Shown: positions 2,248 to 29,480 of the stretch, one piece after another
Numbering within the stretch: position 1 is the first letter of the stretch
Layout of the letters: each line of letters opens with the position of its first letter
DNA from: Candidatus Iainarchaeum sp.
GTDB lineage: Archaea > Iainarchaeota > Iainarchaeia > Iainarchaeales > JAZDEL01
Direction: 5' to 3'
DNA length: 32,000 bases
NCBI GenBank assembly: GCA_043808785.1
Contig: JAZDEL010000004.1
Location: forward strand, 60,001-92,000
The notes under the pieces: generated by a model
Databases searched by the model: none
What the model saw: only the letters and a program-made list of their open reading frames with translations
What the model was told of the DNA's origin: nothing
Translations under genes and position numbers: made by a program

Positions 2248-2248
2248 C

Positions 2249-3979: not shown

Positions 3980-3988
3980 GGGGGCTAA

Positions 3989-4249: not shown

Positions 4250-4285
4250 ACACTGAATTCGGGGTAAGATTTATAACATCATTGA

Positions 4286-4301: not shown

Positions 4302-4311
4302 AGTGTTTTAG

Positions 4312-9574: not shown

Positions 9575-9642
9575 GCAGAAGAATAGGGCTCCGCACACCC
9601 ATAACAACAAAAACCCTGCGTGCGATAATTCTTTCTGATAAC

Positions 9643-11199: not shown

Positions 11200-11254
11200 G
11201 CACGCGCGGGGCAACGGTCATAAAATAATTTTATAAGGCGTTGCAGGCAGAAAT

Positions 11255-12115: not shown

Positions 12116-12146
12116 ATTAATATATAACTTATGATTTAAATAATTA
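12116..12146 (+). promoter_or_regulatory. TATA-like promoter elements of giant gene 1
   Basis: ATTAATATATAA (12116..12127) and GATTTAAATAATTA (12133..12146) form an AT-rich patch 40-70 nt upstream of ATG 12185. Confidence 0.35.
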
Positions 12147-12175: not shown

Positions 12176-15100
12176 GTGGTTCGCATGCCGAGGGACGACG
12201 AGGAAAAGCTGGAGTTCGGGGAAGAGGAGGATATCGGCGGGCCGGGGCTTGGGAGCGATGACGAATTTTCCGTGGCGGGGGATGAGGGGCTTGCGGGCGC
12301 GGGGGGCGCAGGCGGTGCCGGTGCAGGCGGGGGCACAGGCCTGCTCGGCGGAATCTACTCGAAAATAGAGGGCGCGTTCTTCGGAATCATGGATGCGCTG
12401 CAGAACCGCGGCATACCTGTCTATTCGGTAATTGAACCTTTGGAGAACCGCGGAATACCTTTTTTCCCCATGAGCATTGCGCTCGCGATTGTCGTGCTCT
12501 TCCTAGCATACGGCTTCTTTTTTGCACAGCCGCAGGAAGTAAGGCTGAACTTCACCATAATTGACGCGGCGGGGGAGCCGCTGGGCGGCGTGAGCGTGAA
12601 CATTGCCGGCGGCGGAATATCCGAAAGGGGCGTGTTCAAGGACCAGCAGGTGCTGATACTTAAAGGCGCGCATCTGGGGACGGAACTTGAAATAAAGGCC
12701 ACAAGGGCGGGCTATGCGGAATTCTCGAAAACCATGGTAGTGAGCGGAAGCGATAATGCGGTTTATGTGCAGATGAAAAAGGAAGCGGGCATAATAGTGG
12801 GGAAAATAAAACTTATAGACGCGGAAACCGACGACACCGTGGCGGCGGCGAACGTCACCGCGGAGTTCGCTGACGGGAGCACGGTGAACTGCAACTACGC
12901 GGGCAACGGCATTGTGGAATGCGCGGGCGTTGCCGAGGGGGAAAAGGCGCAATTGCACATAAGCACAAGCAATTACGAGGACAAGGATGCGGAAGTCGCG
13001 TTCTACGCGGACAGGGTGGACAGCATAAGCCTCGAGCCGAAGGGAGGGGCGAATGCGGGAACATCGAACCTTATTGTGAAGGTTACGGACGCGGACACAA
13101 AACTGCCGCTCAGCGGGGCGGGCATGCAGGTTTATGACGCGGCATCAAACGCGCTGATAAGCGAGGTTAAGTTTGACGCGGAATACGGCGAGGCAATTAC
13201 AAAGGGGACTTCGGTAAGGATTGTTGTCAGCGCGGACGGGTATGAAACTTACGATTCGGGCGCCGCAGCGGCGGGGGGTTCGGGCGCTTCAGGCTCTGGC
13301 ACTTCCGGCACGTCAGGCGGAACAAAAACAATGCGCAACGACGAGGAACCGTGGAATGTCGCGCTGCACAAGGGCGGAACAACCATGCACGTGACTGTGC
13401 AGGACGCCTCGGAAAGCGGGCTGCCGCTTTCGGGCGCGAAAGTTATGCTGTTCAATTCAAAGTCGGAACTATTGCAGGAATATGCGACAAAATTCGGCGG
13501 GGATGCGGAATTTGCAGGACTCGAGCCGCTGGCGGATTATTACGCTACGGCATACAAGGACGGCTATCTCCCCTCAAGAATCACGGCAAAGCCGAGCGAA
13601 AAAAAGGGCTACAAAATAGAGCTCGAGAAGGCCACAACCTCGAACTCCGGCCTGCTTGAAATTACGGCCGAGGATTCATTCGGAAATATAGGGAACGATA
13701 CACTGCTGAACATATATGAAATCGTGGGGGGGAAGAACCTGCCGCTCGGAATTGCGCAGCAGAGGTGCGATTATTTCGGAAAGGCGAACATAACAATTGC
13801 TGACGGGAAAACGGTTTATGTTTCCGCATCAAAGGGCGTTGAAAGCGGGGAGGGAACTGCAACAATAACCGCAAACTCGGCAAACCAGATAGCGATAAAA
13901 ATGAGGCGCCCCGCGGGGGTTGTCCTGCTTGTGCTGATGGAGGAAGGCACGGAAGTGAGCGACGGGAACGTGCTTGTGAAAACGGGGGCGGGGCAAACCC
14001 TGCTGAACGCACAGTACAAGACGGGGGGAATTGAATTTGTTGCGGGAACGAACAAATTCGTGAAACTCACATACACCTATCCCGACGGGAAAACGTTCAG
14101 GGAGGAGGTGAATGTTTCGGGAAAGGAGCGCGCGGAGGTGCAGGTCAGCAGGGAGGGCACGTCAGCATTCGCGCCAAAGCTGGAGTTTTTGGGGATTACC
14201 GATGCGTCCGGAAGGGAAGTGGAGGGCCTGGCAAAGGGCATGGATTATTACCTGAAATTCAGGCTTGAGATGCCGGAAGGGGAGTACAAGGGCGGAATGC
14301 ACGTGCGTTTGGGGGAGGATAGCGTGAAATATGCGGATTCCATGGATGCGGGAATAATAGGGTTCAGTGCTGTCGGCGCGGGGCACACGTACGGCAGGAC
14401 TTACTCGCCATTGCCCGAGCCGGGTTATGAGGGAATAGATTACATGAACAGGGGGCAAGAGGGCAAATACAACAAATGGCTTGAATTATATTTCAAGAGC
14501 GGCGGCTCGAAGAACGTAAAGGTCAGGGTTAAGGCAAAGGAGACCGCAACAAGCGATTCTATAGCCCTGCATTACAGGGCGTGGACCGAGGGCGGGGAGG
14601 GCGCATATTACAGGGAACCTGCTGATGAGGCGCTCGGGAATGAGAGGGCAAACAGTTTGCGCTCTTCCCTCTACGCGGAAACGAAAACCGCGGAGATAAA
14701 GATTTTCGACGAGTTCCCTAATTGCGAGAACGAACTCTGCACATCTTACAAATTCGTGAGGGAGGACGGCACGGAATATGAAACCGCGGATTTCAAGGCC
14801 GCGAAAGGCGGGCTGTACGCGCTTGAGATCGAGGTGAACCCCAGGGAGGCGGCAAACCTTGCAATAAAGGGCTCCACTGTGAAGGCAAGCCCGAAGATTG
14901 CTTTCCAGGGATATGCAATAAACAATTTCGCGGAATTCCCCGATACGAACAGCAGCGACACTTCGATAGAGGCAAAGGATATTGCGCTCACAAAGGACAA
15001 GGCAGTGAAGGTGAGGCTTTACTTCAAGGTTCTTGATATCGGGAACACGCACATAACCGTGCAGGCGCTCACGCAGAAAAGCGCGCTCACGGAGAATTTC

Positions 15101-18100
15101 TATTTCAATTCGTATGTGGAGAAGGGGCTTTCGGTTACCGTGCTGCCCGCGTTCGTTGCAACGGGCAAGGACTTCGAGGTCATTGTGAAGGGTGACGCGG
15201 GGGAGGGCGTTGAGAACGCGGTGCTGAAATTCAGGAACGCGTACAACGAACTGCTGCGCACGGTTTCGGGAGACGGAACGAAAGGGAACGGAATGAACGG
15301 GAGCTACACGATAAAGAATTCGTTCGATGCGGGAAAGATAGAACTTGAGGTCAGCGCCGACGGGTACAAGCCCGCAACAGTGGGGATTGAAATCGGCAAG
15401 GCGGGCGTGCTCGAACTGCCGGCGGAAGTGAGGATAATGATCCCCAAGGGGCAGGGGAGCGCGGAAACAAGGGTTGCGATAAAGAACAATTCCGCGAGCA
15501 TAGTGCAGAACCTGACGTTTGAGGTGAAGCCGAAGGGGGGTGTGCCTGACGGAATGGAAATAAGCGTCGCTCCCGTGACTTACATTTCCGCGAACTCCGT
15601 GCATTACGTAACCTTCCGCGCGGAATACCGGGGCAGTGAAGAGAGGGTGCATGCCGGCGCCGAGGTAATTGCGCGCGGCACACTTGAGGGAAAATACCCC
15701 GTGAACGCGAGCACGAATGTTATTGCGGATTACAACCCCAAGCTTGACAGCGAGTGCCTTGAACTAAGCAAGGAGAAGCTTGTGGTTTACCTCGCGAGCG
15801 GAATAAGCCAGCAGCAGTATTACAGCGGCCTGTATAACTCGGGATATTACGCCACGCAGGATTACCTCACGAACGCGCAGGGATACAATAACCAGTATTA
15901 CTCGCAGTACGGGCAGAGTTCATACAACCCCACGCAGGACCAGTATTACCAGTACAATGCGTACACCGAGCACTCGGAAGTGAAGGTGACTTTGAGGAAC
16001 AAGTGCAATATCGCGCTCACAATTACGCCCGAGGCTGTTGCAGCGGAGAACGTGGACAGCGAGATAAAGATAGAACTGGATAAGGAAATAACGCTGGAGG
16101 CCGCGGGCAGCGAGAGCGGCGGGAGGAAACTTGACGAGAAGGAAATAACTGTCATTGTTACGGACAGCGTGATGAGGAATTATGACACAAGCCGGCAGTT
16201 CGATTATGAGATATTCTTCCGCTCGGACGCGCTGACAAAATCCCTGCCATTGGAGGTTTACATATGGAACCCGGCGTATGCGCTGCAGGCGAACAGGAAC
16301 ATAGAGCTGTGGCTTGCGGAGAGCGTGCCCGGGCAGCAGGCTACTGCCGCAACCCCTCTCCTTATCAGGAACGTGGGGCAGGCGGATATTGAGAATATAA
16401 ATTTCCAGGTTGTGACCTCGGCAAGCGCCGGCTCCACAACGGCAAGCATAGAGCCAAGGTACGCGACAGCTGTTCTGCACGTGGGGGAAAGCATAACCCC
16501 TCCTCCTGTGCTGGTTGCGAAGGCGATAAGGGACCAGAAGGCAACACCGGGGGATGTTGTGAAGATAGACATAAAGGGAACCATAGGCGGAAGGTCGTAT
16601 TATTTCGGGCCGATAAATGTCACAACTCACGTGAGCCCGCCCGAATGCATAAAGGTCACGCCCTCTGATGTTTCATTCAGCAGCACAGTTTGCGAGGAGG
16701 GCGCCCTTGAGAGGGACATAACTATTACGAACCACTGCGCGGACGCTGTCAGCATACGCGGGATAAGCCCGGACAATATTTCGGGGAACATGCTTGTGCT
16801 CGGCGCGGGCGCGCAGTATATTGAGGCTGGGCGGGAGGTAAAGGCGAAATTAGTGCTTGACAAGAGGCAGTGCTATGACGGGCCTACGGAGCCTGTGGTG
16901 CTGAAGGGCTTCCTGATGAGGACACAGCGCTGGATCGATTCGAACCCCATAAACCTTAATGTGAAAATAGGGAAGCGCGCGGGAAAGGCGGAAACCGCGG
17001 CGCAGGTTGTTACAGTGGAGGTCTGCGCAACCACGGGGAAAAAGGAAACGCGCGAGGTTTCATTCCCCGTAATTGCGGCAGGCGCGAACTGCGACAGGGC
17101 ATACTGCGATGCGCAGCAGATGGCGCAGTACCTTGCGGGGATAATAGAGACAAAAATAAAGGACGTGAAAAGGCAGGTGGCAAGTTACGGCGCGGATGCA
17201 CAGAAGGCGCAGTGCGGGAACAACGCATATGAGGGGTATTGCACATTCGAAAGTTTGGGCATAGGGAGCGCGGACATGGAACTGTTCTTCCAGAACGACA
17301 CAATGAGCGACGGCATGCTTGAGAGCGAGATGGAAAAGAAGGGGGCGGAACTGAAGGGCTACTCAGTGGAGTACACAAGCCCGGGCGCAAATGCGGGAAG
17401 GAACATAGGGGCATACGGGAAGCGCGTCTGGCTAACGGATTCCTTCACAGGCTGCGGGAGGTATGTGGTGAATGTTACCGGCGCGGTGAGGGTGCAGGGC
17501 GCGAGGCTTATGCCGGATTATATTTCGGTTGTAGTGGAAATGCATCCCGAGAAAGGGGGCAGTGCGCGCGAGATAACCGAGCAGTGCACGCCGAAGATAC
17601 AGAACATAATGAATTTCCTGCCCGTGGATAAGGGCTATGGCACGGGGAACTCGCAGTACAGCTGGCTGGGGACTGTTGTTGCCGATGAGGAGGAATACAA
17701 AAGCCTCGGGGAGGAGGTTGCAAAATCATTGTTCGGGGACAAGAAGAGGTTTGTGGAGAGCAGCAGCACTAACAGGCTTGAAATAAGGAAGGGCGTTGAC
17801 GAGGGCTATGTGGCAAAGGTTAGCATGGAGCGTGTCGGGGATGCGCAGCCGATGGCGGTTTACGCAAACATAAAGGTGGCGGCGGGGGCGAAACAGCAGG
17901 ACATTGCCACGGAGGCTGCAAAGGCGATCAGGGGGCTTGGCGGCGCGAGCATTGACGGCTGCATCGCGCCCGAGGGAGAGGACAATTACTTCCTGCTAAG
18001 GGCGGCAACAGGAATGGAGGAACTGGAGATAGGCGAGTGCACAAATGCGCTTGGACAGAAGGATGTGCTGAACGTGCTCTACAACAAGGAAAGCTGCTGT

Positions 18101-20158
18101 GAGTTCACGGTTTACGGGGTTATGGCGGAGACAATAACAGTTGGCGCAACTGTCAGGAGCGACACCCCCTCGGGAATAGGGAAGGTTACAGTCGTGCCTG
18201 TTGCGCCGGAACCAACACAGCAGAAGAAGGGGGAAAGCGCCACAACCGAGGTACCGCTCGGGGCTGTTTCCGCTTCCGGTGCCGCACAACAGAAGGCAGA
18301 TGTAAAATCAGTTGCCGGTGAAATTTCCTCCCCTACAGGCATGGCATTGCTTGCGGATGAGGAAGGGGCGGCGGATGCCGGGCAGCCAGATGGCACGGCT
18401 GAAAATCCGCCTGCAAACGGCGGCACCGCAACCCCGCAGGGCGGAGGGCAGAAACCCGCGGCAGCGGAGCAGGGCACGGGCGCCGCGCAGGAAAAGGCGC
18501 CGGCACAGCCGCAGGCAAAGCCCGCTGTGCAGGACAGCAGGGCGGGGAAGTACGCGGCAAAAATGAAACTTTGCGTCACGGGAAACCAGAGCCTGCAGCT
18601 CGCGCAGGGCAAGGAGATTCTTATTAACGCGCAGGCAAGGTCGAAGGCGAAGAGCCAATTGGACGCGAAAACCCGCAGCGTTAAGGTGCAGGTCTGCGGG
18701 ATAAACCCGAACAGGCTTGCGGGAAAGATGGAAGGATTAAAGGCGGGGGATGTGAGGTATGCGATGCTTGTCTGGGAGGGCGCGCCCGACAGCCTGACTT
18801 TAAACGACATAAAGATTTCCACGGATGCGGAAAAACTCAAGGCAAGCATAGAGGCGAAGATAAACAAAAACGATTTCAGCGAGGTGAAGAGCGAGGATGC
18901 GCAGATGAAGCAGGACGCGATTTTGTATTACTACATGCCCGCGTGCTCGGCAACCGCAGCGGTTCTGGGGTTTTTAACAAAAGGGTGGCCGGGCATATTC
19001 ATCGAACCCACTGTTGACTGCGTCATACCCGGCGCACTCGCATACCTCGGGCAGACATCATACGGCAACAGAGCCAAGGAGAATTTGTACGGTTATTTCG
19101 AAAACATAAAGGGGCTTTCCCCGGAAATCATCAAGCCATACCTCGGCTGGCTTGAGAGTTTCATGAAGGGCAATTCCCCGCTGGAAACCGGAAACACGGA
19201 GGGTGCGGTGGACGACGCCAGGGTGGCGGCAACTGTGTCAATAAGCGCCAGGGCAGCAGGAAAGATTGTGGCAAACAAATGGGAGGCAATATTCCCCAAA
19301 TCATTTACCAGCCTCCTTAAGAACAGCGCGTACACGGGCATAATAACCGGCGCGCTTTCGAACGCGGCGGGGCTTTATTTCTACGATAAACATATCGCGC
19401 AGGAAACCGCGAAAAAGCAGGGCGGGGCAGTGCAGACAGGGAACCAGCCGCAGAATGTGGATACAACAGGGGACGGAAAGAACGACACAACCGTGCTTTA
19501 CCAGGGCTCGGGAATAACTTTCGATAAGTACGGAACATACAAGATTTCGCGCACGAAGCAGGGGCTGGATGTCAAGGACGTTTACGAACCTGTCGCAGGC
19601 CTGCCAGAGGGAACAAAGCCCGAGCAGATGCTTTGCGATGCGCAGAGCATGTCCCTGCCTGCGGGCGGCGCGGGCATACTCCCAGACCCTAACCGCCCGC
19701 CGAGCGGTGCCGGGGTGCCGCAGCATTACTACGCGATTTTCAATTACCTCGACAGGTATTCGGGAATGATACACGGCGCATCGGTTGCAAGCGGGGTGCC
19801 CGAGGCGCTGCTTGTCACTGTCGCGATATGGAAGGGGGAACTTGACACGCGGACGCCGAGCGATGCGTGGATAACGGGATGCAACGCGAAGGCTGCGGAT
19901 GCGAAGGCATGGAGCGCCGCGGACAAGAGCTTCGGGTGCGCGGCGAAACAGCTGGGCGAAGATATGGCATCGTGCGGCGGGGATTACTCCGAGGAAATGG
20001 TTACCTGCGCGCTGAAACTTTACAACAACCGCGACAGCGACAAGGGCGCGAACCAGTTCACGCCGATGAGCGACGCCAAGTACGCGGAATACTACGCGAT
20101 TTTCAGCGCGTGGAATGCGTATCCGAAAGGCGCAACGGGCAAGGTTACGGCAGGCTGA
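12176..20158 (+). CDS. Giant membrane-anchored surface protein 1 (2660 aa): acidic/Gly-rich N-terminus, conserved GIPVY motif + TM helix, multiple CarboxypepD_reg/Ig-like beta-sandwich repeats, Q/N/Y-rich segment, A/P/Q-rich linker, C-terminal hydrophobic segments and a lysozyme/SLT-like tail
   Basis: An uninterrupted 7983-nt ORF; the likely true start is ATG 12185. The TM helix is PMSIALAIVVLFLAYGFFF. Repeats of ~70-90 aa of the type LIVKVTDADTKLPLSGAGMQVYDA...VSADGYETY and MHVTVQDASESGLPLSGAKVMLFN...AYKDGYLP match the carboxypeptidase-regulatory-like pattern. It is paralogous to the genes at 21702 and 30271. Confidence 0.85.
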   Translation: MVRMPRDDEEKLEFGEEEDIGGPGLGSDDEFSVAGDEGLAGAGGAGGAGAGGGTGLLGGIYSKIEGAFFGIMDALQNRGIPVYSVIEPLENRGIPFFPMSIALAIVVLFLAYGFFFAQPQEVRLNFTIIDAAGEPLGGVSVNIAGGGISERGVFKDQQVLILKGAHLGTELEIKATRAGYAEFSKTMVVSGSDNAVYVQMKKEAGIIVGKIKLIDAETDDTVAAANVTAEFADGSTVNCNYAGNGIVECAGVAEGEKAQLHISTSNYEDKDAEVAFYADRVDSISLEPKGGANAGTSNLIVKVTDADTKLPLSGAGMQVYDAASNALISEVKFDAEYGEAITKGTSVRIVVSADGYETYDSGAAAAGGSGASGSGTSGTSGGTKTMRNDEEPWNVALHKGGTTMHVTVQDASESGLPLSGAKVMLFNSKSELLQEYATKFGGDAEFAGLEPLADYYATAYKDGYLPSRITAKPSEKKGYKIELEKATTSNSGLLEITAEDSFGNIGNDTLLNIYEIVGGKNLPLGIAQQRCDYFGKANITIADGKTVYVSASKGVESGEGTATITANSANQIAIKMRRPAGVVLLVLMEEGTEVSDGNVLVKTGAGQTLLNAQYKTGGIEFVAGTNKFVKLTYTYPDGKTFREEVNVSGKERAEVQVSREGTSAFAPKLEFLGITDASGREVEGLAKGMDYYLKFRLEMPEGEYKGGMHVRLGEDSVKYADSMDAGIIGFSAVGAGHTYGRTYSPLPEPGYEGIDYMNRGQEGKYNKWLELYFKSGGSKNVKVRVKAKETATSDSIALHYRAWTEGGEGAYYREPADEALGNERANSLRSSLYAETKTAEIKIFDEFPNCENELCTSYKFVREDGTEYETADFKAAKGGLYALEIEVNPREAANLAIKGSTVKASPKIAFQGYAINNFAEFPDTNSSDTSIEAKDIALTKDKAVKVRLYFKVLDIGNTHITVQALTQKSALTENFYFNSYVEKGLSVTVLPAFVATGKDFEVIVKGDAGEGVENAVLKFRNAYNELLRTVSGDGTKGNGMNGSYTIKNSFDAGKIELEVSADGYKPATVGIEIGKAGVLELPAEVRIMIPKGQGSAETRVAIKNNSASIVQNLTFEVKPKGGVPDGMEISVAPVTYISANSVHYVTFRAEYRGSEERVHAGAEVIARGTLEGKYPVNASTNVIADYNPKLDSECLELSKEKLVVYLASGISQQQYYSGLYNSGYYATQDYLTNAQGYNNQYYSQYGQSSYNPTQDQYYQYNAYTEHSEVKVTLRNKCNIALTITPEAVAAENVDSEIKIELDKEITLEAAGSESGGRKLDEKEITVIVTDSVMRNYDTSRQFDYEIFFRSDALTKSLPLEVYIWNPAYALQANRNIELWLAESVPGQQATAATPLLIRNVGQADIENINFQVVTSASAGSTTASIEPRYATAVLHVGESITPPPVLVAKAIRDQKATPGDVVKIDIKGTIGGRSYYFGPINVTTHVSPPECIKVTPSDVSFSSTVCEEGALERDITITNHCADAVSIRGISPDNISGNMLVLGAGAQYIEAGREVKAKLVLDKRQCYDGPTEPVVLKGFLMRTQRWIDSNPINLNVKIGKRAGKAETAAQVVTVEVCATTGKKETREVSFPVIAAGANCDRAYCDAQQMAQYLAGIIETKIKDVKRQVASYGADAQKAQCGNNAYEGYCTFESLGIGSADMELFFQNDTMSDGMLESEMEKKGAELKGYSVEYTSPGANAGRNIGAYGKRVWLTDSFTGCGRYVVNVTGAVRVQGARLMPDYISVVVEMHPEKGGSAREITEQCTPKIQNIMNFLPVDKGYGTGNSQYSWLGTVVADEEEYKSLGEEVAKSLFGDKKRFVESSSTNRLEIRKGVDEGYVAKVSMERVGDAQPMAVYANIKVAAGAKQQDIATEAAKAIRGLGGASIDGCIAPEGEDNYFLLRAATGMEELEIGECTNALGQKDVLNVLYNKESCCEFTVYGVMAETITVGATVRSDTPSGIGKVTVVPVAPEPTQQKKGESATTEVPLGAVSASGAAQQKADVKSVAGEISSPTGMALLADEEGAADAGQPDGTAENPPANGGTATPQGGGQKPAAAEQGTGAAQEKAPAQPQAKPAVQDSRAGKYAAKMKLCVTGNQSLQLAQGKEILINAQARSKAKSQLDAKTRSVKVQVCGINPNRLAGKMEGLKAGDVRYAMLVWEGAPDSLTLNDIKISTDAEKLKASIEAKINKNDFSEVKSEDAQMKQDAILYYYMPACSATAAVLGFLTKGWPGIFIEPTVDCVIPGALAYLGQTSYGNRAKENLYGYFENIKGLSPEIIKPYLGWLESFMKGNSPLETGNTEGAVDDARVAATVSISARAAGKIVANKWEAIFPKSFTSLLKNSAYTGIITGALSNAAGLYFYDKHIAQETAKKQGGAVQTGNQPQNVDTTGDGKNDTTVLYQGSGITFDKYGTYKISRTKQGLDVKDVYEPVAGLPEGTKPEQMLCDAQSMSLPAGGAGILPDPNRPPSGAGVPQHYYAIFNYLDRYSGMIHGASVASGVPEALLVTVAIWKGELDTRTPSDAWITGCNAKAADAKAWSAADKSFGCAAKQLGEDMASCGGDYSEEMVTCALKLYNNRDSDKGANQFTPMSDAKYAEYYAIFSAWNAYPKGATGKVTAG
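12402..12460 (+). repeat. Intragenic direct repeat encoding the duplicated NRGIP unit
   Basis: AGAACCGCGGCATACCT (12402..12418) and AGAACCGCGGAATACCT (12444..12460) match at 16 of 17 nt and are 42 nt apart. They encode QNRGIPVY and ENRGIPFF. Confidence 0.7.
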
Positions 20159-20265: not shown

Positions 20266-21555
20266 ATGAATTATCTAACGGTTCCCATGCGCACCCAATG
20301 CAGGAAAGGATTCACGCCATTCACCGCGCCGCGCGGCTTTACATTGTTCACCGCGCTTGTGGCATTCATACTCATCGTGCTTGCGATGCTCCTTGTGCAG
20401 GCGATGATACGCGCGGAGAGGGGAACTACCGATGTTGTAAGCGACATGGGAGAGCAGGCGGAGATGGAGGCGATTGCCGACCTTGTGAGGGCTGACGCAC
20501 TGCAGAGGTTCAATTACACGATAAGGTACTCGATTGAGAACTGGATAACCCAGCCGGGCAACCAGTACCCTTTGACGCGCGGAAAGCTTTCCTGGAAGGA
20601 CGTGCAGGGCGAGTTTGTGAAGTCTAACTTCGGGGAAGAGGGCGGCGGAACGCAGTTCGCGAACATTGCCGCATATAATCTTTCAAGCATACTTGCGGAG
20701 GCGGGGGATGTGAGGGGCTTTGACATAAGTTTCACGAACAACGACACCGTGAAATTAAGGAACAGCGTACAGGGGATATTCGAAAAAAGCCTGGGCGAGG
20801 AAACTTTCTTCGAGGTTGTGAAGTGCCCCGAGGGGGCTTACGAAAACTGCGTCGGCACTTTCTATGTGACGCTGGACCTGGCAAACATGGATGATGCGGA
20901 GTACGAGGCACTGCCGCAGATAACCGTGGAGAGCACGCTCACAAAAAGGGTGATGAAGGTGCCGATGCTGCCACGCGGGAAATTCAGGATTTACGTGCCC
21001 TTGCGCGTGTTCAGGGCGATTGCCGCTGCGAGGGAAATTGCGATAGGAAGCGGCGGCACGGAGGCGGGCGGGTACATGGACGGGGACGGGCTGCTGGGGG
21101 GCGGGTTCCACAATGAAATAAGCGGAATAAATGCGGGGCAGGGCTGCACAAGCGGCTGCGGCGGAGGGGCGGACGACCCGGAAAATGTGAAAACTACGCT
21201 GCGGGGCGATGCCGAGGGCAGGATAAACGACTGGGCAAACAAACTCGCGGAAAAGCTGAAGCCCGGTGACGGGTTCGGGGATTTCATAATGCAGGGCGCG
21301 GGAGGCCTGAGCGGAAACAGGGCGAAGGAAGTAACCGTAACCGCGGAAATCACGCACACTTGGCACCTGCAGGGCGGCGGGGAGGCGTACTGCGCAAAGC
21401 CTTGGGATACGCAAACGAAAATAGTTTTCCGGGAGACGAACCCCGAATACATAGTCAGCGGCGGGGAGGGCGCGCAGAGGGAATATACGGTAGCGATTAC
21501 CGACGTGTTCGACCAGGGCAACCCGCAGGACATATACTGTTCGGAGAGGGGATAG
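20266..21555 (+). CDS. Type IV pilin-like protein with a class III signal peptide
   Basis: 429 aa. The N-terminus MRTQCRKGFTPFTAPRGFTLFTALVAFILIVLAMLLVQAMI has a short charged leader, an [KR]G cleavage-type motif and a ~20-residue hydrophobic helix. The TATA-like TTATTAATCATATAAA (20251..20266) favours the in-frame ATG at 20287 as a leaderless start. Confidence 0.6.
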   Translation: MNYLTVPMRTQCRKGFTPFTAPRGFTLFTALVAFILIVLAMLLVQAMIRAERGTTDVVSDMGEQAEMEAIADLVRADALQRFNYTIRYSIENWITQPGNQYPLTRGKLSWKDVQGEFVKSNFGEEGGGTQFANIAAYNLSSILAEAGDVRGFDISFTNNDTVKLRNSVQGIFEKSLGEETFFEVVKCPEGAYENCVGTFYVTLDLANMDDAEYEALPQITVESTLTKRVMKVPMLPRGKFRIYVPLRVFRAIAAAREIAIGSGGTEAGGYMDGDGLLGGGFHNEISGINAGQGCTSGCGGGADDPENVKTTLRGDAEGRINDWANKLAEKLKPGDGFGDFIMQGAGGLSGNRAKEVTVTAEITHTWHLQGGGEAYCAKPWDTQTKIVFRETNPEYIVSGGEGAQREYTVAITDVFDQGNPQDIYCSERG

Positions 21556-21701: not shown

Positions 21702-24700
21702 ATGGCTGAAAACACCGGGCTTTACAGGAGCCTTGAGAATAAATATTACGATTTCCTCGATATGCTCGAAGCCAGGGGCATTCCGGTTTACAAGCTCGTG
21801 AACGCGATAGAGGCGCAGAACATACCCACCTTCCCGATTGCGATTTTGCTGAGCATTGCTGTGCTTGCGCTGCTTGCGTGGGGCATTGCCGGAATTCTCG
21901 CGCCAGCGCAGGGCACGCTCACTGTTGTCGTGCAGGACTCCGGGGGAAGCGCGCTTTCGGGGGCGATTGTAACGGTTACGCCCGCATCCGGGCAGAGTTT
22001 GCCCCCCACAACAACTAACCGCGACGGGGAGGCAAAATTCGGCGTGCCGCTTAACCAGCTGATTAAGGCCGAGGCAAAGAAGGAGGGGCACAGCACTGAG
22101 TCTGAGAGCACGACGGTTTCCGCGCAGGAAGGCAAGGTGCTCATAATACTGAGTGAGGAAACAGGCACGGAGCACAAGACAATAAGCCTTGTGAAGTACG
22201 GCACGAACGAACTTGTCAGGGATTCGGTCACAGTGCAGTTCAGCTGCAGCGGAAGCGGCTGGAAGGCCACTGAAACAACAACGAACGGCAGGATTGAACT
22301 TGATGTGCCGGGGGATTGCGGAACAATGTACGCGTTCCCGCAGGGGGGATATAGCACAAGCAACGACAGCTTCGGCAGCGGGGACGCATTCACAATGTAC
22401 CTTTCGCAGGAGGAGGCGGGGAAGGGAATTGTGATTGCATCCGTTACGGACAAGGACGGGAAAACGATTTCGGGGATTGATGTTTCGCTTTTCGAGGAGG
22501 GCATGGGAAGGGTGATTACACTCACAACGCCCGCAAGCGGAATGCTCACATTCAAAAATATTCCCGCAGGGCGCTATTACCCCGTGACTTATGACGCAAC
22601 AGGAACCTATGCGGAGTATGACGGCAGCGAAAGCGGCAATGTAAAGAGCCTGCAGGCGGGAGGGAGCGTGGAGTTCGGCATAGTGCTTGGCAAGGCAGCT
22701 GTAGGGACCATAAAAATCTACGCGCGCGACAAGGAGACCCTTGAGGGAATTTCGGGCGCGAAAATTTCACTCAGCAAGGGCGGCACGCAGATAAAGGACG
22801 AGTTCACGGGCAACGACGGGAAGGTTACGCTCTACGTGGGGGAGGATGTGGCTTACGATGTTACAATAGACAAGGCGGGATATCTCATAGAAAACCTGAA
22901 CGGAATTATGCCCAGCGCGGATTTCAGGGAAGTGATGCTTGCAAAGGCGACCGAGCAGAACAGCCGCTCGCTTGCCGTAACCGTGCAGGACGAGAGGGGC
23001 GCGCCTGTGGAGGACGCAAGGCTTGTGCTCAAGCTTGCCAGCGACGGCACCCCTGTCGGCAGCGAACTAGTTACAGGGGCGAACGGCAGGGCGAGGTTCG
23101 AGAGGCTCGAGGCGGGCACATATTACGTTTATGCATACAAGCCGGGATATGGCGACGGAAGTTCCGCGCCGGTTACGGTGAGCGGCAGGGAGGAGGCAAC
23201 CGCAAAAGTGACAATAAACATAGGCGAGGGGGGCATAGGAGCAAGCGTGCTTGACGAGCAGGGCCAGCCTGTCGGGGGGGCAAGGGTAAGGCTTGTGAAT
23301 GCGCGCGCAATGGAAACGATGCAGGATTCGGTTGCGGACGCGCAGGGATATGTTAAATTCGGCGTGAGGATTGACAAGAAAGTTTTCCTTATTGCCTCCT
23401 CACAGGGCTTCATGCAGCACACGACAGTGCCCCTGCAGGCTGCGAAGGACACAACGCAGGACATTGAAATAAGGCTTGTTAAGGCGGTGCCGAACCTGCA
23501 GGTGAAACTGCTCGGGATTTACACGGGCGGCCAGCAGGTGGGGGAATCGGACGGGATGCTTAACGCAGGCGGGCTTTACACAGCGAAACTGCAGTTGCTT
23601 ATTCCCGAGGGGGCGTCATTCAACGAGGCGGGCGTGCATGTGCGCACAGGCGCTGCGGACAGCACAATCATGGAGAAGGATTATTTATACATAACAAATG
23701 TGCGCGCCGCATACAGCTCCGTAATGCGCGGCACATCCTATAACCCGCCGAACGGTTACGCAAAGGACGCGGAGCATTTGACAAGCGGGAACGCGAAATG
23801 GGCGAATGTAAATTTCACGCAGGTCGGGGGAGGGGTTTATGATGTTGAGGCGGATATACAGGTCAGCGGCGCAGCTGCGAACGGCACAGCGCTTGATTTG
23901 TGGTACAGGGGCTGGGGAAAGGCGGGGAGTTATGTAAGGTTCCCTGCCGACACGGCATTGGGAGGGGCGGAGAGCAATGCGGAGAAGCAGGCATTATATG
24001 CGCAGGCAAATAACAGGCACTACACTGCGGGAATTGCTTCCCCGTGCTACGGGAATTTCTGCGCGAACTTTTTAATCGAGGATTTGGACGAGGGGCTGAA
24101 GACAGCTGTAATTGACGAGTATGTGGCAAGGGCGGGGGGAAGATACAGCCTTGCATTTTCGGTGAACAGCATTTCGGAAAGCGTTTTCGGCGGGGCGAAA
24201 CTGAAGATTTACGACAGCACAGGCAGCCTTGCGCTCGGGGATTATGAGATACTCACCGCGGCGGGGGAAAACAAAAAAGGCGCGGGAAAGGGCGGCCTTG
24301 TGGAACTTGACATAGGGGACATAAGCAAAGATGGGGTTGTGCAGGGGCGCGTGAATTTCAGCGCCGTGAAGGAAGGCACTGCACTGCTTGAGGTGAGCGT
24401 TGTCTCTGACGCCGAGAAAGTTTTCACGCAGGAAATAAGGTTTAACATCGAACCCGCGAAGGCGATGGTTGTTGAAGTTGTGCCCAAAGTAATCGTGCCT
24501 TATGTGAACAACAACATGCTTATCCACGTTGCCGATGAAAGCGGCGCCTCGATTGCGAACGCGCGCATTGCGCTGCTCAAGGACGGGGCGATTATTGCGG
24601 ACGGGGAAACGGATTCTTCGGGAGTGTTCCCTTACACGCTGCTTGCCCCGAGCGCCGGGAGCGTATTGAGGATTGAGGCGGAAAAGACAGGCTACAAGAA

Positions 24701-27700
24701 GGCGGCGCTCGAACTCACTGTTAACGAGAACATACTCAATGTGAAGCCGCAGAAGATTAAGGAAACGCTCACGCTCGGCAGCGAGACAAAGAAGGAGGTC
24801 GTGATAATCCTGCGGAACCTCACCGTAATACCGCTCGCGCTCGAGGAGATGCAGGCGAGCGGCGAGTTCAAGGATTATGTCGCTTTCGATTTCGGGAAGG
24901 TTGCCGCAGGTGCGCTGATTGATGTCAATGCCGACTCGAACGCAACCTTCGGGATTTCGGTAACTGGAAAAGGCAATAACATAACCGCGCCGAAAACAAC
25001 AAGCGGCTCAGTGGGGATTTATGTAAGCAATCCCGAGTTCGGCAGGACATGGGTTACGCAGGTGCCTGCGGAAGTCAGGATAGGGTTCGGTGCCGAGGTT
25101 GACGATGCCGAGTGCTTTGGCTTGTATCCGACAGACTGGAAGCTGTTCACGGGCACCGCAAAGAAAACACTTGCCGTGACTCTCACGAACTCGTGCACGG
25201 TTTCGGGGGAGCCTGTTGCGCTGAAGAAACTGCAGGCGCGCTTAGTCCCGAGTGCGCAGAACGAGCTCGGAAAGTTCAGGGTTTCATCCGAACTGAACGA
25301 GGGCGGTGCTGTAGAGCTCTCGAACAAGTTCCAGACAATTACAATGAACGTGCCCGCGGGGGAAAGCGCCTCGGAGCCCGCACAGTCGGCCCTTACCCTC
25401 GAGTTCCTGCCAGCGGACATCGCTTCCGGCGGCGGGGAGTTCACGCTGGAGTTCGTTGCCGTTAATTACACCGAAGGCGGGGACGAACAATTGAAGCAGA
25501 AAATAAAGGCGGAGGTGCACATAGACAACCTTGCGCAGTGCGTGGAGATAGTGCAGGACAGGGATTTGGTTATCGAGACCGCTGGCTACAACACGGGCTG
25601 GGGGAATTACGGGAATAATTTCTGGAACGGCGGGAGCAACAATTATTTCAACCCTATGCAGAACACGTGGCAGAACTACGGGATGGGGGCACAGAATTAC
25701 GGCATGGGGATGCAGAATTATGGCGGCGCGAACCCGATGATGGACACAACATACCGCGGCACGGGAACGCCGAATTACATGGGCAGTTACAATTACCTGA
25801 GCCAGCAGTATTACCCGAGCGCGAGCTGGAGTTACCCTTTCCAGGCATCGGATTATTACGACAGCAGGGCATCGAGTTCATGGGGCGTGGGGGGAAGCGG
25901 AACGCAGTACGGAGGGGCGACAAAATTCACGGTGAAGAACAACTGCGCATCGGGCGTGGATATAGAACTTGATGTTGACCCCGCGCTGACGGTGCAGGAC
26001 GGCAGTTTCAAGATAGACAGCACCGCGGGGAAGGATGTTGAAGTTAGGTCGGCTTACGCGATAGGGAGGTACGCGATAAAGGTAAAGGCGAAGGTTGCGG
26101 GGAGCACCGAGGCTGCAGCGGAAGTGAAAACCGTTTATGTCACCGTGGAGAACGCATACACGAAAAATTACATGGACTGCATAAGCGTCGAGCCCGCGCG
26201 CACGATAAAGTTCAACGATTTCCTCGCGAAGGCGCAGACGCTTACCGTGACAAACACGTGCTACAACGAGGGCGTGAGGCTTATGCCAACGACAAGCGGC
26301 ATAAATTTCAGCGGCGCAAGCACGCCTGTGCAGAGCGAGGGAGTGGGGAGCGAGGTAGTGAAGCAATGGGCCGTGCTGGGCGCGCCGATGTACCAGTCCA
26401 TGGCTGACGGGAAGGTGATGGAGAAGGTAAAATACGAGATAATAAAGAACATAGCGTGGCACGACAGGGCGAAGCAGCAGGTCTCCGCCAACAACCCCGT
26501 AAGGGTTATTGCGAACATAAGGTACGAGGTAAGCGCGGCATATTACGCCGTCGAGGAGCGCACTACACTTTACGTTAATTTCACGAACAAGTACGGGCAG
26601 AGCCAGAGCGTGCCATTCAGCATGATACTCGAGGATTACTGGGAGCTGGGGCCCTTCGTGGAGCAGTATGCCCCGACTTTCGGGAGCGCGTGCCCAAGCA
26701 ATTCTTGCATCAACACGGATGCCATGAACTTTTACAAAACCTACAACGGCGACTGCATACCCGACGAGCACCTGAACAGGGTTTTCAGCAGCGCGGACAA
26801 CGGAGGAGTGATGAAGATTTCGCAGAACGCGCGCGACCCGAAAACGGGGGCGCTTGTGGAGACGAGCGGGTTCGGCAGCGGGGACACGATAGCCGAACTC
26901 ACGGTTGTGGGGGACGCGGATGACGGAAAGACGGACGGCTGGATTAATATCGGGCACGGGGCAAGGGCGCAGTTCACGATTGCGAAGGGCAAGCAGAACA
27001 TAAATATGAAGCTGGATTTGAGCAACCGCGACGGGGAGAAGATTGACGGCTCGGTTAAGCTGCTGTTCACGATAAACAGGATGAGCCCCGGCCTGAAGTC
27101 CGCGGAACAGCACAGCATAATGGTGACATTCTGCATAAAGGCGGGAAAGACGGGGAAGGCGCTGACGGAGGAGGAGAAGCTGGCTGATGCAAGGACACCG
27201 AAACCCGCGGTTTCCGCGGGCGGCGTTAAGTGCGATACCGGCGGAGCGTTCGGGAAGTACGGGTTCGATAAGTTACTGTGGGACTGGAGATTTACGGGGG
27301 ACAATGTTGAAAACGGAAGCGCGGTAACAAGGCTGGCGTGCAACTCGCAGAAGTGGGACGGCGCAACAAACACCATGATCGACAACATGAACGGCGCGAA
27401 ATTCTGCGACGGAACGCAGTTCATGATTACGCTGGAGAAGAAGGCGGAGATGATAGCAAACATTCTGAATGCACACAGTGGCGAATTGTCGTGCGGCTTC
27501 TGCGGCACTGACGCACAATACAGGACTTCGGAGAACCTCTGGAGATGGGCACTGAAGCAGGTCGCTGTGCCAGATGCATATGCCGGAGATACGTTCTATT
27601 TTATTCTTGCGGATGCGGGCGAAGGAAAACTTGAGGTGCTCGAGAGAAGCGGCAAGATTGGCGCTTCGGAAGCAAAAGAATTCCCGCAACTGGCAATTAC

Positions 27701-29480
27701 AGCCACGGAAGTGACGAATGAAAGCGGGAAGAGCAATGCGGCGGAAATATTCACCAGCGTAACAGCCACACTCCGGAACACAGAAAACCAGAAGAAGGGA
27801 TGGTTCTCGGATGTTCTTGCGGTTGTCAAGGATGAAACTGGTGACAGCCAGGGCCACAAGGAAGCATATGAATCGCTCGGCATGAACCACGTCGAGCTCT
27901 ACAATAAAAAAGACAGAAATGAAGGCACAATAGGCGCCTGGTTTATGACCCTTGGAGAGTTCTATGCCCTGGATAAGGCGATAAAAGAGGCAGGGGACCA
28001 ATGCAAAAGCGGCACGTGCACATTCAAACTGGCACTCTGGGACGATAAAACAAAAACTAGGGTTCCAAAAGACATTACACTTGACTCAAAAGTCCTACAG
28101 GACATATATAAAAATATTGAGTTCGTTTACGGAATAAGGAACTATGCGGGCACGACGCCTGCCGAGAGGGACGAGGCGATGCTGAACGGGGCATCAGTTG
28201 TGCCAAACCTCCTGCAGTTCTATAAGGAAAACATAGATTTCCAGGCGCTGCTGATAAAGGACGGATACGGCAAGGGCTTCACCGCGGACTTCAAGGCGAA
28301 GTATCCGAATGAGATAATAAACGACGGCGCGGGATGGAACTTCACCAAAGGCGCGCTTGCGGAATCGGGAAACTACTCCGCGCTGCTGAACTACAAGTGG
28401 GATAAAGATATGAAAGCAAGCGGCGTGGATGTCACTGCCGTGAAGAAGCAGGGGCTTGCGGATATCGACGGCAAAAACGAGCCGAAAACCGCTTACGTGC
28501 AAAACCCGTTCATGAACATGGCGTTCGACGGGGATGTGGGGCTGGATAAGGATGGAGTGTTCCGGAGGAGCGGCTACGGCATTTTGATGAAGCTTGAGAA
28601 GTATGAGGGCGAAGCCGTATATGCGCGCTACAGTGCAAACCCGTCATATGCCGCCGAGTATAAAATGAACAAGGTGGGCTCCACTGGCGAACCGCTGAAT
28701 ACGTATTCCCTCCACTACAATTACGACTGGGAAAACACGAGCACGGGGAGGATTCTTGAATTAACAGGCAACACCGTAAAGTTCAACCCCACAGATCCCG
28801 TCGTAATAAACCTGCAGATAGACAATAAGGGGCCGCTCAAAAAGGAAACCATAGGGTTTGTTTACGACATCAGCAACAAAGTGTGGAGCCTGAAGACGCT
28901 AAGCAAAGACGGCCGCGCTAATCCGCTGGATTGGATAGTGCAGCAGAACTCAATGGGCGGCACGAAAACAGACGGCGACACGATAAAAGGCGAGTTGGAA
29001 CACCCATGGGGCATTTGCTTTGCCAGGGGGATCTTCAACGACCCCACAGTCTCATACGAGGCTGAGCACGAAGGCCACCTAATACTGAGAAGCATTGTTT
29101 ATGCGCCAGTGAATGTGACATTTGAAGGGGCAAAGCAAAACAAAATAGGGCCGACAAAATTCGAGATATTGTGCACGGATGACCGCATCCAGAAACAGAA
29201 CATAACAATCCTTGACGATAAAAGCACGGTGTTGCCTAGTGCGAGCGGCACCGACCGCCTTAACGGCACGGAAGACAACAGGCTGTCCACGCACTACACT
29301 TGGAAACAGTTGTTCGAGATGATAAGCGACAACGGCACCACTATTGAAAAAATAGGCCCTAGCCAGAGGGCGAATTATGTGTGCGTAGACACAAGCAATG
29401 GCGGAATGACGCTTTTGTGGAACGAGGATTACATACTGAACCAGCTCTCCCCAACTGGCGAGGCACCTAAAGGGAACTGA
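21702..29480 (+). CDS. Giant membrane-anchored surface protein 2 (2592 aa), paralog of giant 1
   Basis: An uninterrupted 7779-nt ORF. The N-terminus is LYRSLENKYYDFLDMLEARGIPVYKLVNAIEAQNIPTFP followed by the TM helix IAILLSIAVLALLAWGIAG. At least 6 CarboxypepD_reg-like repeats are present (e.g. LAVTVQDERGAPVEDARLVLKL...GRARFERLEAGTYYVYAYKPGYG). The mid-region is homologous to giant 1, and there is an N/Q/Y/G-rich segment. Confidence 0.85.
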   Translation: MAENTGLYRSLENKYYDFLDMLEARGIPVYKLVNAIEAQNIPTFPIAILLSIAVLALLAWGIAGILAPAQGTLTVVVQDSGGSALSGAIVTVTPASGQSLPPTTTNRDGEAKFGVPLNQLIKAEAKKEGHSTESESTTVSAQEGKVLIILSEETGTEHKTISLVKYGTNELVRDSVTVQFSCSGSGWKATETTTNGRIELDVPGDCGTMYAFPQGGYSTSNDSFGSGDAFTMYLSQEEAGKGIVIASVTDKDGKTISGIDVSLFEEGMGRVITLTTPASGMLTFKNIPAGRYYPVTYDATGTYAEYDGSESGNVKSLQAGGSVEFGIVLGKAAVGTIKIYARDKETLEGISGAKISLSKGGTQIKDEFTGNDGKVTLYVGEDVAYDVTIDKAGYLIENLNGIMPSADFREVMLAKATEQNSRSLAVTVQDERGAPVEDARLVLKLASDGTPVGSELVTGANGRARFERLEAGTYYVYAYKPGYGDGSSAPVTVSGREEATAKVTINIGEGGIGASVLDEQGQPVGGARVRLVNARAMETMQDSVADAQGYVKFGVRIDKKVFLIASSQGFMQHTTVPLQAAKDTTQDIEIRLVKAVPNLQVKLLGIYTGGQQVGESDGMLNAGGLYTAKLQLLIPEGASFNEAGVHVRTGAADSTIMEKDYLYITNVRAAYSSVMRGTSYNPPNGYAKDAEHLTSGNAKWANVNFTQVGGGVYDVEADIQVSGAAANGTALDLWYRGWGKAGSYVRFPADTALGGAESNAEKQALYAQANNRHYTAGIASPCYGNFCANFLIEDLDEGLKTAVIDEYVARAGGRYSLAFSVNSISESVFGGAKLKIYDSTGSLALGDYEILTAAGENKKGAGKGGLVELDIGDISKDGVVQGRVNFSAVKEGTALLEVSVVSDAEKVFTQEIRFNIEPAKAMVVEVVPKVIVPYVNNNMLIHVADESGASIANARIALLKDGAIIADGETDSSGVFPYTLLAPSAGSVLRIEAEKTGYKKAALELTVNENILNVKPQKIKETLTLGSETKKEVVIILRNLTVIPLALEEMQASGEFKDYVAFDFGKVAAGALIDVNADSNATFGISVTGKGNNITAPKTTSGSVGIYVSNPEFGRTWVTQVPAEVRIGFGAEVDDAECFGLYPTDWKLFTGTAKKTLAVTLTNSCTVSGEPVALKKLQARLVPSAQNELGKFRVSSELNEGGAVELSNKFQTITMNVPAGESASEPAQSALTLEFLPADIASGGGEFTLEFVAVNYTEGGDEQLKQKIKAEVHIDNLAQCVEIVQDRDLVIETAGYNTGWGNYGNNFWNGGSNNYFNPMQNTWQNYGMGAQNYGMGMQNYGGANPMMDTTYRGTGTPNYMGSYNYLSQQYYPSASWSYPFQASDYYDSRASSSWGVGGSGTQYGGATKFTVKNNCASGVDIELDVDPALTVQDGSFKIDSTAGKDVEVRSAYAIGRYAIKVKAKVAGSTEAAAEVKTVYVTVENAYTKNYMDCISVEPARTIKFNDFLAKAQTLTVTNTCYNEGVRLMPTTSGINFSGASTPVQSEGVGSEVVKQWAVLGAPMYQSMADGKVMEKVKYEIIKNIAWHDRAKQQVSANNPVRVIANIRYEVSAAYYAVEERTTLYVNFTNKYGQSQSVPFSMILEDYWELGPFVEQYAPTFGSACPSNSCINTDAMNFYKTYNGDCIPDEHLNRVFSSADNGGVMKISQNARDPKTGALVETSGFGSGDTIAELTVVGDADDGKTDGWINIGHGARAQFTIAKGKQNINMKLDLSNRDGEKIDGSVKLLFTINRMSPGLKSAEQHSIMVTFCIKAGKTGKALTEEEKLADARTPKPAVSAGGVKCDTGGAFGKYGFDKLLWDWRFTGDNVENGSAVTRLACNSQKWDGATNTMIDNMNGAKFCDGTQFMITLEKKAEMIANILNAHSGELSCGFCGTDAQYRTSENLWRWALKQVAVPDAYAGDTFYFILADAGEGKLEVLERSGKIGASEAKEFPQLAITATEVTNESGKSNAAEIFTSVTATLRNTENQKKGWFSDVLAVVKDETGDSQGHKEAYESLGMNHVELYNKKDRNEGTIGAWFMTLGEFYALDKAIKEAGDQCKSGTCTFKLALWDDKTKTRVPKDITLDSKVLQDIYKNIEFVYGIRNYAGTTPAERDEAMLNGASVVPNLLQFYKENIDFQALLIKDGYGKGFTADFKAKYPNEIINDGAGWNFTKGALAESGNYSALLNYKWDKDMKASGVDVTAVKKQGLADIDGKNEPKTAYVQNPFMNMAFDGDVGLDKDGVFRRSGYGILMKLEKYEGEAVYARYSANPSYAAEYKMNKVGSTGEPLNTYSLHYNYDWENTSTGRILELTGNTVKFNPTDPVVINLQIDNKGPLKKETIGFVYDISNKVWSLKTLSKDGRANPLDWIVQQNSMGGTKTDGDTIKGELEHPWGICFARGIFNDPTVSYEAEHEGHLILRSIVYAPVNVTFEGAKQNKIGPTKFEILCTDDRIQKQNITILDDKSTVLPSASGTDRLNGTEDNRLSTHYTWKQLFEMISDNGTTIEKIGPSQRANYVCVDTSNGGMTLLWNEDYILNQLSPTGEAPKGN
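25671..25727 (+). repeat. Three tandem QNYG(M/G)G units inside giant gene 2
   Basis: The stretch encodes QNYGMGAQNYGMGMQNYGG. The underlying DNA units are CAGAA(C/T)TA(C/T)GG(G/C)ATGGGG. Confidence 0.7.

Follow-up and report, generated by a model that had tools for sequence, protein, structure and literature searches.

We found that the three giant surface-protein genes in a 32,000-nucleotide window of Candidatus Iainarchaeum sp. (contig JAZDEL010000004.1, positions 60,001 to 92,000; coordinates below are those of this whole stretch) open with the same short N-terminal module of about 45 residues, placed directly ahead of a single membrane-spanning helix. The module is the best-conserved part of a large protein family, as mean column conservation across 61 aligned full-length proteins is 0.58 in the first 40 residues compared to 0.13-0.45 elsewhere. 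Judged by sequence comparison it is new and unnamed, a member of none of the signal families with which we compared it. We tentatively read the module as capping, on the cytoplasmic side, a type II signal-anchor that stays uncleaved, and as serving the giants as a shared anchoring or assembly handle, an interpretation drawn from sequence and structure prediction to which we give somewhat less than an even chance.

The three genes lie on the plus strand and encode G1 (2657 aa, 12185..20158), G2 (2592 aa, 21702..29480) and G3, whose N-terminal 576 aa (30271..32000) are contained in the window and whose reading frame continues beyond its end. In a three-way alignment of the N-termini, Y, E, D, L, GIPVY and P are invariant ahead of the hydrophobic stretch, in agreement with the preliminary description of this DNA, which had reported a shared motif before the transmembrane (TM) helix in all three giants; translation also bore out the sequences that it quoted for 12344..12523, 21702..21899 and 30271..30462, except that the G1 string starts one codon before 12344. 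The module of G2 comprises aa 1-45 (21702..21836), delimited from a structure model and column frequencies, and consists of helix 1 (aa 5-24), an RGIP turn (aa 25-28), helix 2 (aa 29-37) and a QNIPTFP turn (aa 39-45), followed by the membrane-spanning helix FPIAILLSIAVLALLAWGIAGIL (21831..21899), placed by the same model and by hydropathy. By alignment, the G1 module LLGGIYSKIEGAFFGIMDALQNRGIPVYSVIEPLENRGIPFFP (12341..12469) has the same order of helix 1, RGIP turn, helix 2 and RGIPFFP turn, with helix boundaries taken over from the G2 model, and leads into the membrane-spanning helix FPMSIALAIVVLFLAYGFFFA (aa 94-114, 12464..12526), found by hydropathy scan. The G3 module, likewise from alignment, spans aa 1-43, MGLKEIYRGMENGYYSFLDSLDAKGIPVYKIIDPIDKIVPSLA (30271..30399), and its membrane-spanning helix, from hydropathy, lies at 30394..30468.

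The motif starts at residue 1-6 in G2 and G3. G1 carries an acidic, Gly/Ala-rich N-terminal extension of about 52 aa (52-55; 12185..12340) ahead of the module, which is atypical for the family, as the module starts at residue 1-2 in 131 of the 150 top matches of the search described below. The G1 open reading frame was listed from a GTG at 12176; we place the start at the ATG at 12185 because database representative P0005, whose sequence is identical to the G1 product, begins MPRDDEEK. The TATA-like sequence TTTAAATA at 12135-12142, upstream of G1, is consistent in position with this start.

A profile built from the three N-termini, as the preliminary description had recommended, was searched against 1.84 billion representative proteins and returned 847 protein clusters at E<=1e-3, of which 198 reached E<=1e-10. 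In almost all of the best 150, the match starts no further than a dozen residues from the N-terminus, and for 131 of them the distance between annotated start and KGIPVY turn is 27-28 residues. Proteins of the family are about 1,800 to 3,600 aa long, most of them 2,300-3,000 aa, and 60 of 151 retrieved carriers measure 2,300-3,100 aa. Shorter carriers in the loci that we fetched mostly end at a contig end or assembly gap, with the shortest apparently complete ones at about 1,800-2,050 aa; the shortest matches with contig data come from contigs of 0.5-7 kb and are therefore fragments, and one mid-length carrier that we looked up sits on a 2-kb contig of 3x coverage. The association of the motif with giant proteins, proposed from the three genes, thus extends to the family. 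A scan of one genome per GTDB species with the pattern GIPVYK[VIL][IVL][DN] gave 27 confirmed loci, all in DPANN metagenome-assembled genomes labeled Candidatus Iainarchaeum, Diapherotrites, Candidatus Micrarchaeota or simply 'archaeon', while a scan of IMG/VR viral contigs found no relatives of the module. At NCBI the homologs bear the name 'carboxypeptidase regulatory-like domain-containing protein'.

We discarded one match, P0015, as a false positive, since the 13 repeats of this insect allergen repeat protein (PF06757) had inflated the match, and the archaeal N-termini did not match PF06757. Each of these repeats holds F.DFLDYL..SGID.Y.IVN, similar to the module from helix 1 through the turn to helix 2, probably a case of a convergent helical hairpin.

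The giants are paralogous over their first 500-900 residues, with ectodomain identities of 23-30% by BLASTP (30% over 582 alignment positions for G3 versus G2), and the motif might accordingly have no function of its own, being shared only through recent paralogy of the three genes or being a chance resemblance. Inside the window the contrast with the ectodomains is indeed modest, as about 15 of 39 motif positions (about 38%, counted by hand) are identical between G1 and G2. Family-wide it is clear, upholding the earlier claim that the motif is far better conserved than the adjacent ectodomains. The number of representatives, which also shows that the motif is not restricted to these three paralogs, the occurrence of the module in two DPANN phyla, its conservation well above that of the rest of the protein and the retention of most type-specific variants across genomes (see below) all count against this explanation, which the family-wide search effectively excludes and which we regard as the least probable of those considered here.

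Column frequencies across 151 sequences, in G2 numbering, identify six positions that are 97-99% invariant: Y8 (97%), E12 (99%), D20 (99%), G26 (97%), Y30 (98%) and P42 (99%). Helix 1 further carries D or E at position 13 (83%), K at 14 (69%) and L at 22 (89%), with Y, F or W at 15 and Y or F at 16 in all sequences. The first turn has K or R at 25 (84%), I, L or V at 27 (all) and P at 28 (88%), and helix 2 has V at 29 (81%), D at 34 (86%) and E at 37 (91%). Toward the membrane, position 40 is G in 56% and N in 35% of sequences, followed by I at 41 (83%), F at 44 (85%) and P at 45 (89%). An AlphaFold2 model of G2 residues 1-73, computed with 74 homologs (a 75-sequence alignment), had a mean predicted local distance difference test (pLDDT) score of 90.8, rising to 96-97 over residues 11-60, with helices at 5-24, 29-37 and 43-66. 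The predicted order is thus helix 1, the KGIP turn, helix 2, the (G/N)IPxFP turn and a 24-residue membrane helix, followed directly by the first beta-sandwich domain. Helix 1 is predicted to be a 20-residue amphipathic helix that bears near-invariant Y8, E12 and D20 and has aromatic or aliphatic residues at a heptad-like spacing (4, 8, 11, 15, 18 and 22), and the nine-residue helix 2 bears Y30, D34 and E37. Conservation, the invariant residues and pLDDT above 95 together argue for a folded domain with a specific interaction, and we read the module as having a specific interaction surface because it appears to be a folded mini-domain with invariant acidic and aromatic residues.

The module contains a 14-residue tandem duplication, in which the end of helix 1 and its turn correspond to helix 2 and its turn. 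Comparison of residues 18-30 with 32-44 (a shift of 14) gave a mean BLOSUM62 score of +2.09, whereas all other shifts from 5 to 24 scored between -2.0 and +0.2, and none of 500 column permutations reached the score at shift 14. The duplication, with the unit (hydrophobic)(L/I/V) D x (L/I)(D/E) x (K/R) G I P x (Y/F), is genuine family-wide; we looked for a third copy upstream and did not find one. The preliminary description had recognized two [GN]IP.[FY] units about 14 residues apart, and these are real in G1 and G2, but in G3 and other G3-type proteins the second unit is one residue shorter and lacks the G or N (D-K-I-V-P-S-L-A), and the G3 of the window also lacks the final Pro. A 17-nt DNA repeat that had been seen in G1 is present as well, matching at 16 of those 17 positions and extending to a 20-nt direct repeat with 18 of 20 bases identical (12399-12418 and 12441-12460, span 12399..12460). 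Its copies each encode L(Q/E)NRGIP and are spaced by 42 nt, or 14 codons, a period equal to that of the protein duplication.

Variation around the second turn distinguishes the giants by type: EE(R/K)GIPFFP in G1-type, xxNIPSFP in G2-type and DPID(K/S)(V/I)(V/I)PSFA in G3-type proteins. Because these variants are mostly kept across genomes, with exceptions such as the G2-type protein of locus L014, they suggest that the modules of the three types have non-redundant partners.

Each giant has one strongly hydrophobic segment, located directly after the module, and the hydropathy scan found no C-terminal anchor in any complete giant; in G1, aa 94-114 is the sole segment with hydropathy above 1.6 in 2657 aa. 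The hydrophobic helix is 22-26 residues long (24 residues in the AlphaFold2 model), with an uncharged run of median 28 residues, a length that is anchor-like rather than that of the short core of a cleaved signal peptide. K and R number 1.8 per 15 residues before the membrane helix versus 0.9 after it, and the giants display the architecture of type II signal-anchor proteins, with a single N-terminal helix of about 20-25 residues and a large C-terminal part made up of extracellular-type domains. Support for this topology is moderate. The helix that follows the module is almost certainly a signal recognition particle (SRP)/Sec signal-anchor, with the module as its N-terminal extension and not an alternative to it. 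The preliminary description had stated that the motif is not a Sec or Tat signal; this stands for the motif itself and for Tat, as none of the three N-termini contains RR or matches a Tat model in Pfam or NCBIfam, but not for the helix immediately downstream.

Orientation could in principle be inverted, with the acidic 45-residue N-tail outside and the 2,500-residue body in the cytoplasm. Short, net acidic N-tails can be translocated without a signal, and the N-tail here is both, with a weak charge bias. However, the body consists of immunoglobulin-like (Ig-like), CarboxypepD_reg, macroglobulin and SpaA-type domains with 24-31 Cys per full-length giant, which is typical of extracellular proteins, and K and R are still more frequent on the N side, leaving an inverted topology very improbable.

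Under the signal-anchor interpretation that we favor, the hydrophobic helix would stay uncleaved as an ordinary SRP/Sec signal-anchor with its N-terminus inside and its C-terminus outside, and the module would fold on the cytoplasmic face without itself being translocated. Archaea, to our knowledge, lack SecA, so the 2,500-residue ectodomain would have to be threaded co-translationally. Despite its net acidic charge, the module may also, as a fast-folding N-terminal domain, lock the N-terminus on the inside. The giants of one cluster, three or four in number, could use the module as a common handle that fixes and organizes their membrane anchors, with possible partners including the other giants, the small membrane protein MEM encoded between G2 and G3, the long helix of the pilin-like protein PIL encoded between G1 and G2, or a cytoplasmic factor. 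All three or four giants of one cluster carry the module even though their ectodomains are only 23-30% identical. The preliminary description had suggested that the motif may be a dedicated targeting, insertion or anchoring signal for giant cargo; this interpretation is supported in part, with a dedicated targeting or insertion role being hypothetical.

Several observations weigh against this interpretation. The K/R bias is weak, with 4.8 K/R versus 7.5 D/E in the module; many members have Pro and small residues right after the helix that could be signal-peptidase sites (for example, LAPAQG followed by T and LLPAGA followed by E); the membrane helix is poorly conserved beyond its hydrophobicity and gives no direct sign of helix-helix packing; and no binding partner was found, MEM having no conserved polar residues. 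Some of these features would suit a different explanation, in which the entire N-terminus of about 66-70 aa, module and hydrophobic helix together, functions as a long Sec signal peptide, cleavable and bearing a conserved N-terminal extension, like ESPR or 'stable' long signal peptides, and the module tunes the rate or mode of targeting of very long cargo or persists as a small membrane peptide. The link of the module to very large cargo, the Pro followed by small residues at -3/-1-like positions and the poor conservation of the helix, as in signal peptides, all fit such a signal. Conversely, a hydrophobic stretch of 22-26 residues is long for a cleaved signal, cleavage would release giants that have no other membrane anchor, and the N-termini match no ESPR, YSIRK or KxYKxGKxW model. 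We also know of no signal extension that shows a folded domain of invariant acidic and aromatic residues. On balance we consider a cleaved long signal unlikely, if still the most serious of the alternatives.

The giants are encoded in the conserved order G1, PIL, G2, MEM, G3, which recurs in related loci (L001, L002, L006-L008, L014/L031, L016-L019, L022 and the AR10-like contigs L029/L030), and one contig (L007 with L023) has a fourth giant. PIL (20287..21555, plus strand) is a type-IV-pilin-like protein with a class III-like N-terminus, in which ..PRG precedes the putative cleavage point and FTLFTALVAFILIV follows it. In 15 loci this N-terminus is conserved as the textbook class III-like M..(K/R)(G/A) followed by F(T/N)LFTALV(S/A)F(V/I)LI, and across loci PIL measures 367-622 aa. 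Its 62 homologs are all 'hypothetical proteins' of Diapherotrites or Micrarchaeota. An AlphaFold2 model (pLDDT 88) shows a 68-residue N-terminal helix and an alpha/beta head, the 'lollipop' outline of a pilin; the model had no fold match in the PDB and the protein no Pfam family. The PIL of the window, read from 20266 to 21555 on the plus strand, additionally has an N-terminal partial tandem duplication of its cleavage-site region (RKGFTPFTAP / RGFTLFTALV).

MEM (29485..29997, plus strand) is a small membrane protein of 170 aa with 4-5 TM helices, encoded between G2 and G3. Equivalents of 147-201 aa with 3-5 predicted TM helices follow the G2-type giant, at this position or close to it, in at least nine loci, with very low identity among loci (17-27%) and two Gly as the only invariant residues. 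MEM belongs to no Pfam or NCBIfam family, and we saw no conserved polar or catalytic residues in it.

Four related loci also have a small exosortase/archaeosortase-family gene encoding 160-181 aa, located 0.5-3.2 kb upstream of a giant gene: L022 (55-549), L013 (1309-1791), L011 (148-645) and L031 (1896-2441). The downstream giant is G1-type in L013, L022 and L031; for L011 no type is given. Three of these proteins, scanned against NCBIfam, scored 33-49 bits on TIGR04178 compared to a cutoff of 23, with Cys, Arg and His invariant, and the L031 copy matches Pfam PF09721. The window contains no sortase-family gene, nor, besides L011, L013 and L022, do the fetched parts of L001-L027, and Pfam annotations of L029, L030 and L032 list none; a peptidase gene is likewise absent from the window. 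The search for a co-occurring peptidase or insertase that had been proposed thus yielded candidates only, namely MEM, PIL and the archaeosortase-family gene of the four related loci. The closest related cluster, L031, additionally encodes, upstream of the sortase-family gene, another pilin-like protein of 181 aa (194-739, N-terminus ..QKGQEFSVFKLLISAIV) and a polytopic membrane protein of 298 aa (1003-1899), and judging from its gene content the surface-structure locus may be larger than the five genes of the window.

These neighbors bear on a further explanation, in which the module holds an endoproteolytic site. Cleavage could fall between G and I of K-G-I-P-V-Y, or of (R/K)-G-I-P-x-F-P in G1-type proteins, through a prepilin-type peptidase that presumably processes PIL; alternatively, a small archaeosortase-family enzyme could read [IV]-P-x-F-P before the helix. 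The frequencies at the first turn, with K or R at -2 in 84% of sequences, G at -1 in 97% and I, L or V next, resemble such a site, and a genuine class III-like protein is co-encoded in PIL. In VPXXXP-type signals a Pro motif directly abuts the helix, as the Pro-rich motif does here, and the archaeosortase-family genes with conserved Cys, Arg and His stand upstream of giants. However, K31, D34, E37 and K/R39 come after the first candidate site and the membrane helix starts 17 residues later, at residue 43-44, while the would-be leader is a 25-residue, highly conserved, net-acidic helix unlike the short, poorly conserved basic leaders of class III signals. At the second candidate site, which G3-type proteins lack, G is present in only 56% of sequences and N in 35%. 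Sortase signals are found at the C-terminus and finish with a basic cluster, whereas here 2,500 residues follow and K and R number 0.9 per 15 residues after the helix, and the window holds no sortase gene. Neither Pfam nor NCBIfam gave a Class_IIIsignal or N_methyl match. Processing within the module is therefore improbable in our estimate, and the preliminary description was reasonable in declining a prepilin call at KGIPVY.

The same features separate the module from the corresponding known signals. Class III (type IV prepilin or archaellin-like) signals share with it the local [KR]-G followed by a hydrophobic residue, but in the module the hydrophobic helix is not at +1, the 'leader' is a long helix in which conservation peaks, and the second site lacks conservation across the family; a classical class III site was rejected on the charged residues after G26, the distance of the helix and the conserved acidic leader. 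Exosortase/archaeosortase signals (VPXXXP-CTERM, PGF-CTERM) are similar in their Pro-containing motif next to a membrane helix and in the archaeosortase-family gene near related clusters, but lie at the C-terminus, and a classical sortase signal was likewise rejected, as the motif is N-terminal and the giants have no sorting signal at the C-terminus, with neither a C-terminal helix nor a basic cluster.

By functional analogy, the nearest counterparts of the module are ESPR and YSIRK, the N-terminal signal extensions of very large surface proteins of bacteria, and type II signal-anchors in general. ESPR (PF13018), found on very large autotransporters and two-partner-secretion proteins, is also a conserved N-terminal extension before a hydrophobic targeting segment and also selective for very large surface proteins. 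It differs in being bacterial, in serving type V secretion, in preceding a classical cleavable signal peptide and in its unrelated sequence, whereas the module is archaeal, is predicted to form a folded two-helix hairpin with invariant acidic and aromatic residues, and leads into a helix of 22-26 residues, the sole candidate anchor. YSIRK (PF04650) and KxYKxGKxW of Gram-positive surface proteins are family-specific conserved motifs in the signal N-region of big surface proteins, thought to direct where or how secretion occurs, but are short, bacterial and set inside a normal cleavable signal. Membership in ESPR was rejected for want of a Pfam match of the three N-termini at E up to 10, and membership in YSIRK or KxYKxGKxW for want of a Pfam or NCBIfam match. 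Type II signal-anchor proteins (N-in/C-out) share with the giants the single N-terminal membrane helix, the large C-terminal ectodomain and a small cytoplasmic N-domain, the last inferred here; this is a general architecture rather than a family, and within it the sequence and predicted fold of the module have no known relative. Scanned against Pfam and NCBIfam at E up to 10, the three N-termini matched only noise (YoaK, MamI), a PDB sequence-profile search with the module gave nothing below E=0.05, and a Foldseek search of its model against the PDB gave 0 matches, so that the module did not turn out to belong to an already described family. A literature search on the GIPVY motif, giant proteins of Diapherotrites or DPANN archaea and the Micrarchaeota S-layer found no paper on the module.

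Almost nothing is known about the cell-surface biology of the Iainarchaeota and Micrarchaeota, ultra-small archaea whose genomes measure about 1 Mb. A cluster of three or four 2,500-residue proteins occupies about 24-35 kb, or roughly 2-3% of such a genome, and is conserved across two phyla yet annotated only under the generic carboxypeptidase regulatory-like name. The module defines this large unannotated family and the conserved multi-giant cluster in two poorly understood phyla. As the sharpest signature of the family, it would allow a model to find and name carriers in metagenomes, correct start-codon calls and join fragmented gene calls, and it offers a concrete experimental handle on how archaea insert and organize very large surface proteins.

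A bolder proposal, which we think distinctly unlikely, is that Iainarchaeota and Micrarchaeota have a lineage-specific biogenesis pathway for giant surface proteins that recognizes them by the module, which would then be a new class of archaeal N-terminal sorting or assembly signal. A dedicated partner (MEM, a prepilin-type peptidase, the small archaeosortase-family enzyme or a cytoplasmic factor) would read the module and assemble three or four 270-kDa proteins and the pilin-like subunit into one surface organelle. If so, this would be a new sorting principle for archaea, and the organelle might be the apparatus by which ultra-small cells contact other cells. Giant Ig-domain-rich surface proteins thought to mediate cell-cell contact have been described in other DPANN archaea: the SPEARE-type proteins of Nanohaloarchaeota, of 8,880-9,409 aa in two genomes, reportedly combine an ordinary Sec signal peptide with a cytosol-facing VirB4-like ATPase domain (PMC10266531). 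None of these features, size included, is shared by the giants described here. The S-layer protein of Micrarchaeota is a different, 101-kDa protein (10.1101/2021.04.28.441871), and the nanotubes of ARM-1 are host-derived (PMC11329633).

The ectodomains begin about 5-8 residues after the membrane helix with Ig-like domains (CarboxypepD_reg, bMG3, MG4, Big_1, SpaA, SdrD_B). G1 matched CarboxypepD_reg (6e-16), its ectodomain consisting of Ig-like/CarboxypepD_reg repeats; G2 matched CarboxypepD_reg (3e-37), bMG3, SdrD_B, SpaA and Big_1; and G3 matched CarboxypepD_reg (2e-20). The C-terminal halves of G1 and G2 had no match in Pfam or PDB searches. A low-complexity segment rich in Tyr, Gly, Asn and Gln lies mid-protein in G1 (aa 1205-1263, 15797-15973) and G2 (aa 1293-1400, 25578-25901); 24 of 67 full-length homologs have a similar segment at about aa 1,150-1,500, matching a dip in conservation of the family alignment. 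The C-terminal part of G1 contains an Ala/Pro/Gln/Gly-rich linker of about 118 aa and then moderately hydrophobic segments with hydropathy of 1.3-1.4 (18197-18550 and 18917-19060), and several G1-type homologs have comparable weakly hydrophobic segments about 400-850 aa from the C-terminus.

Upstream of G1, positions 1-11860 of the window encode a winged-helix protein (2249-3307), the Mod (4312-6201) and Res (6668-9574) genes of a Type III restriction-modification system, a PIF1-like helicase with a WYL domain (9643-11199) and a GNAT acetyltransferase (11255-11860), along with nuclease-like genes on the minus strand. GC content over roughly the first 10 kb is 0.42-0.47, compared to 0.51-0.58 over the giants. 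From its gene content and composition, this stretch may be an inserted defence or mobile island, occupying the site at which a regulator and the sortase-family gene are found in related genomes.

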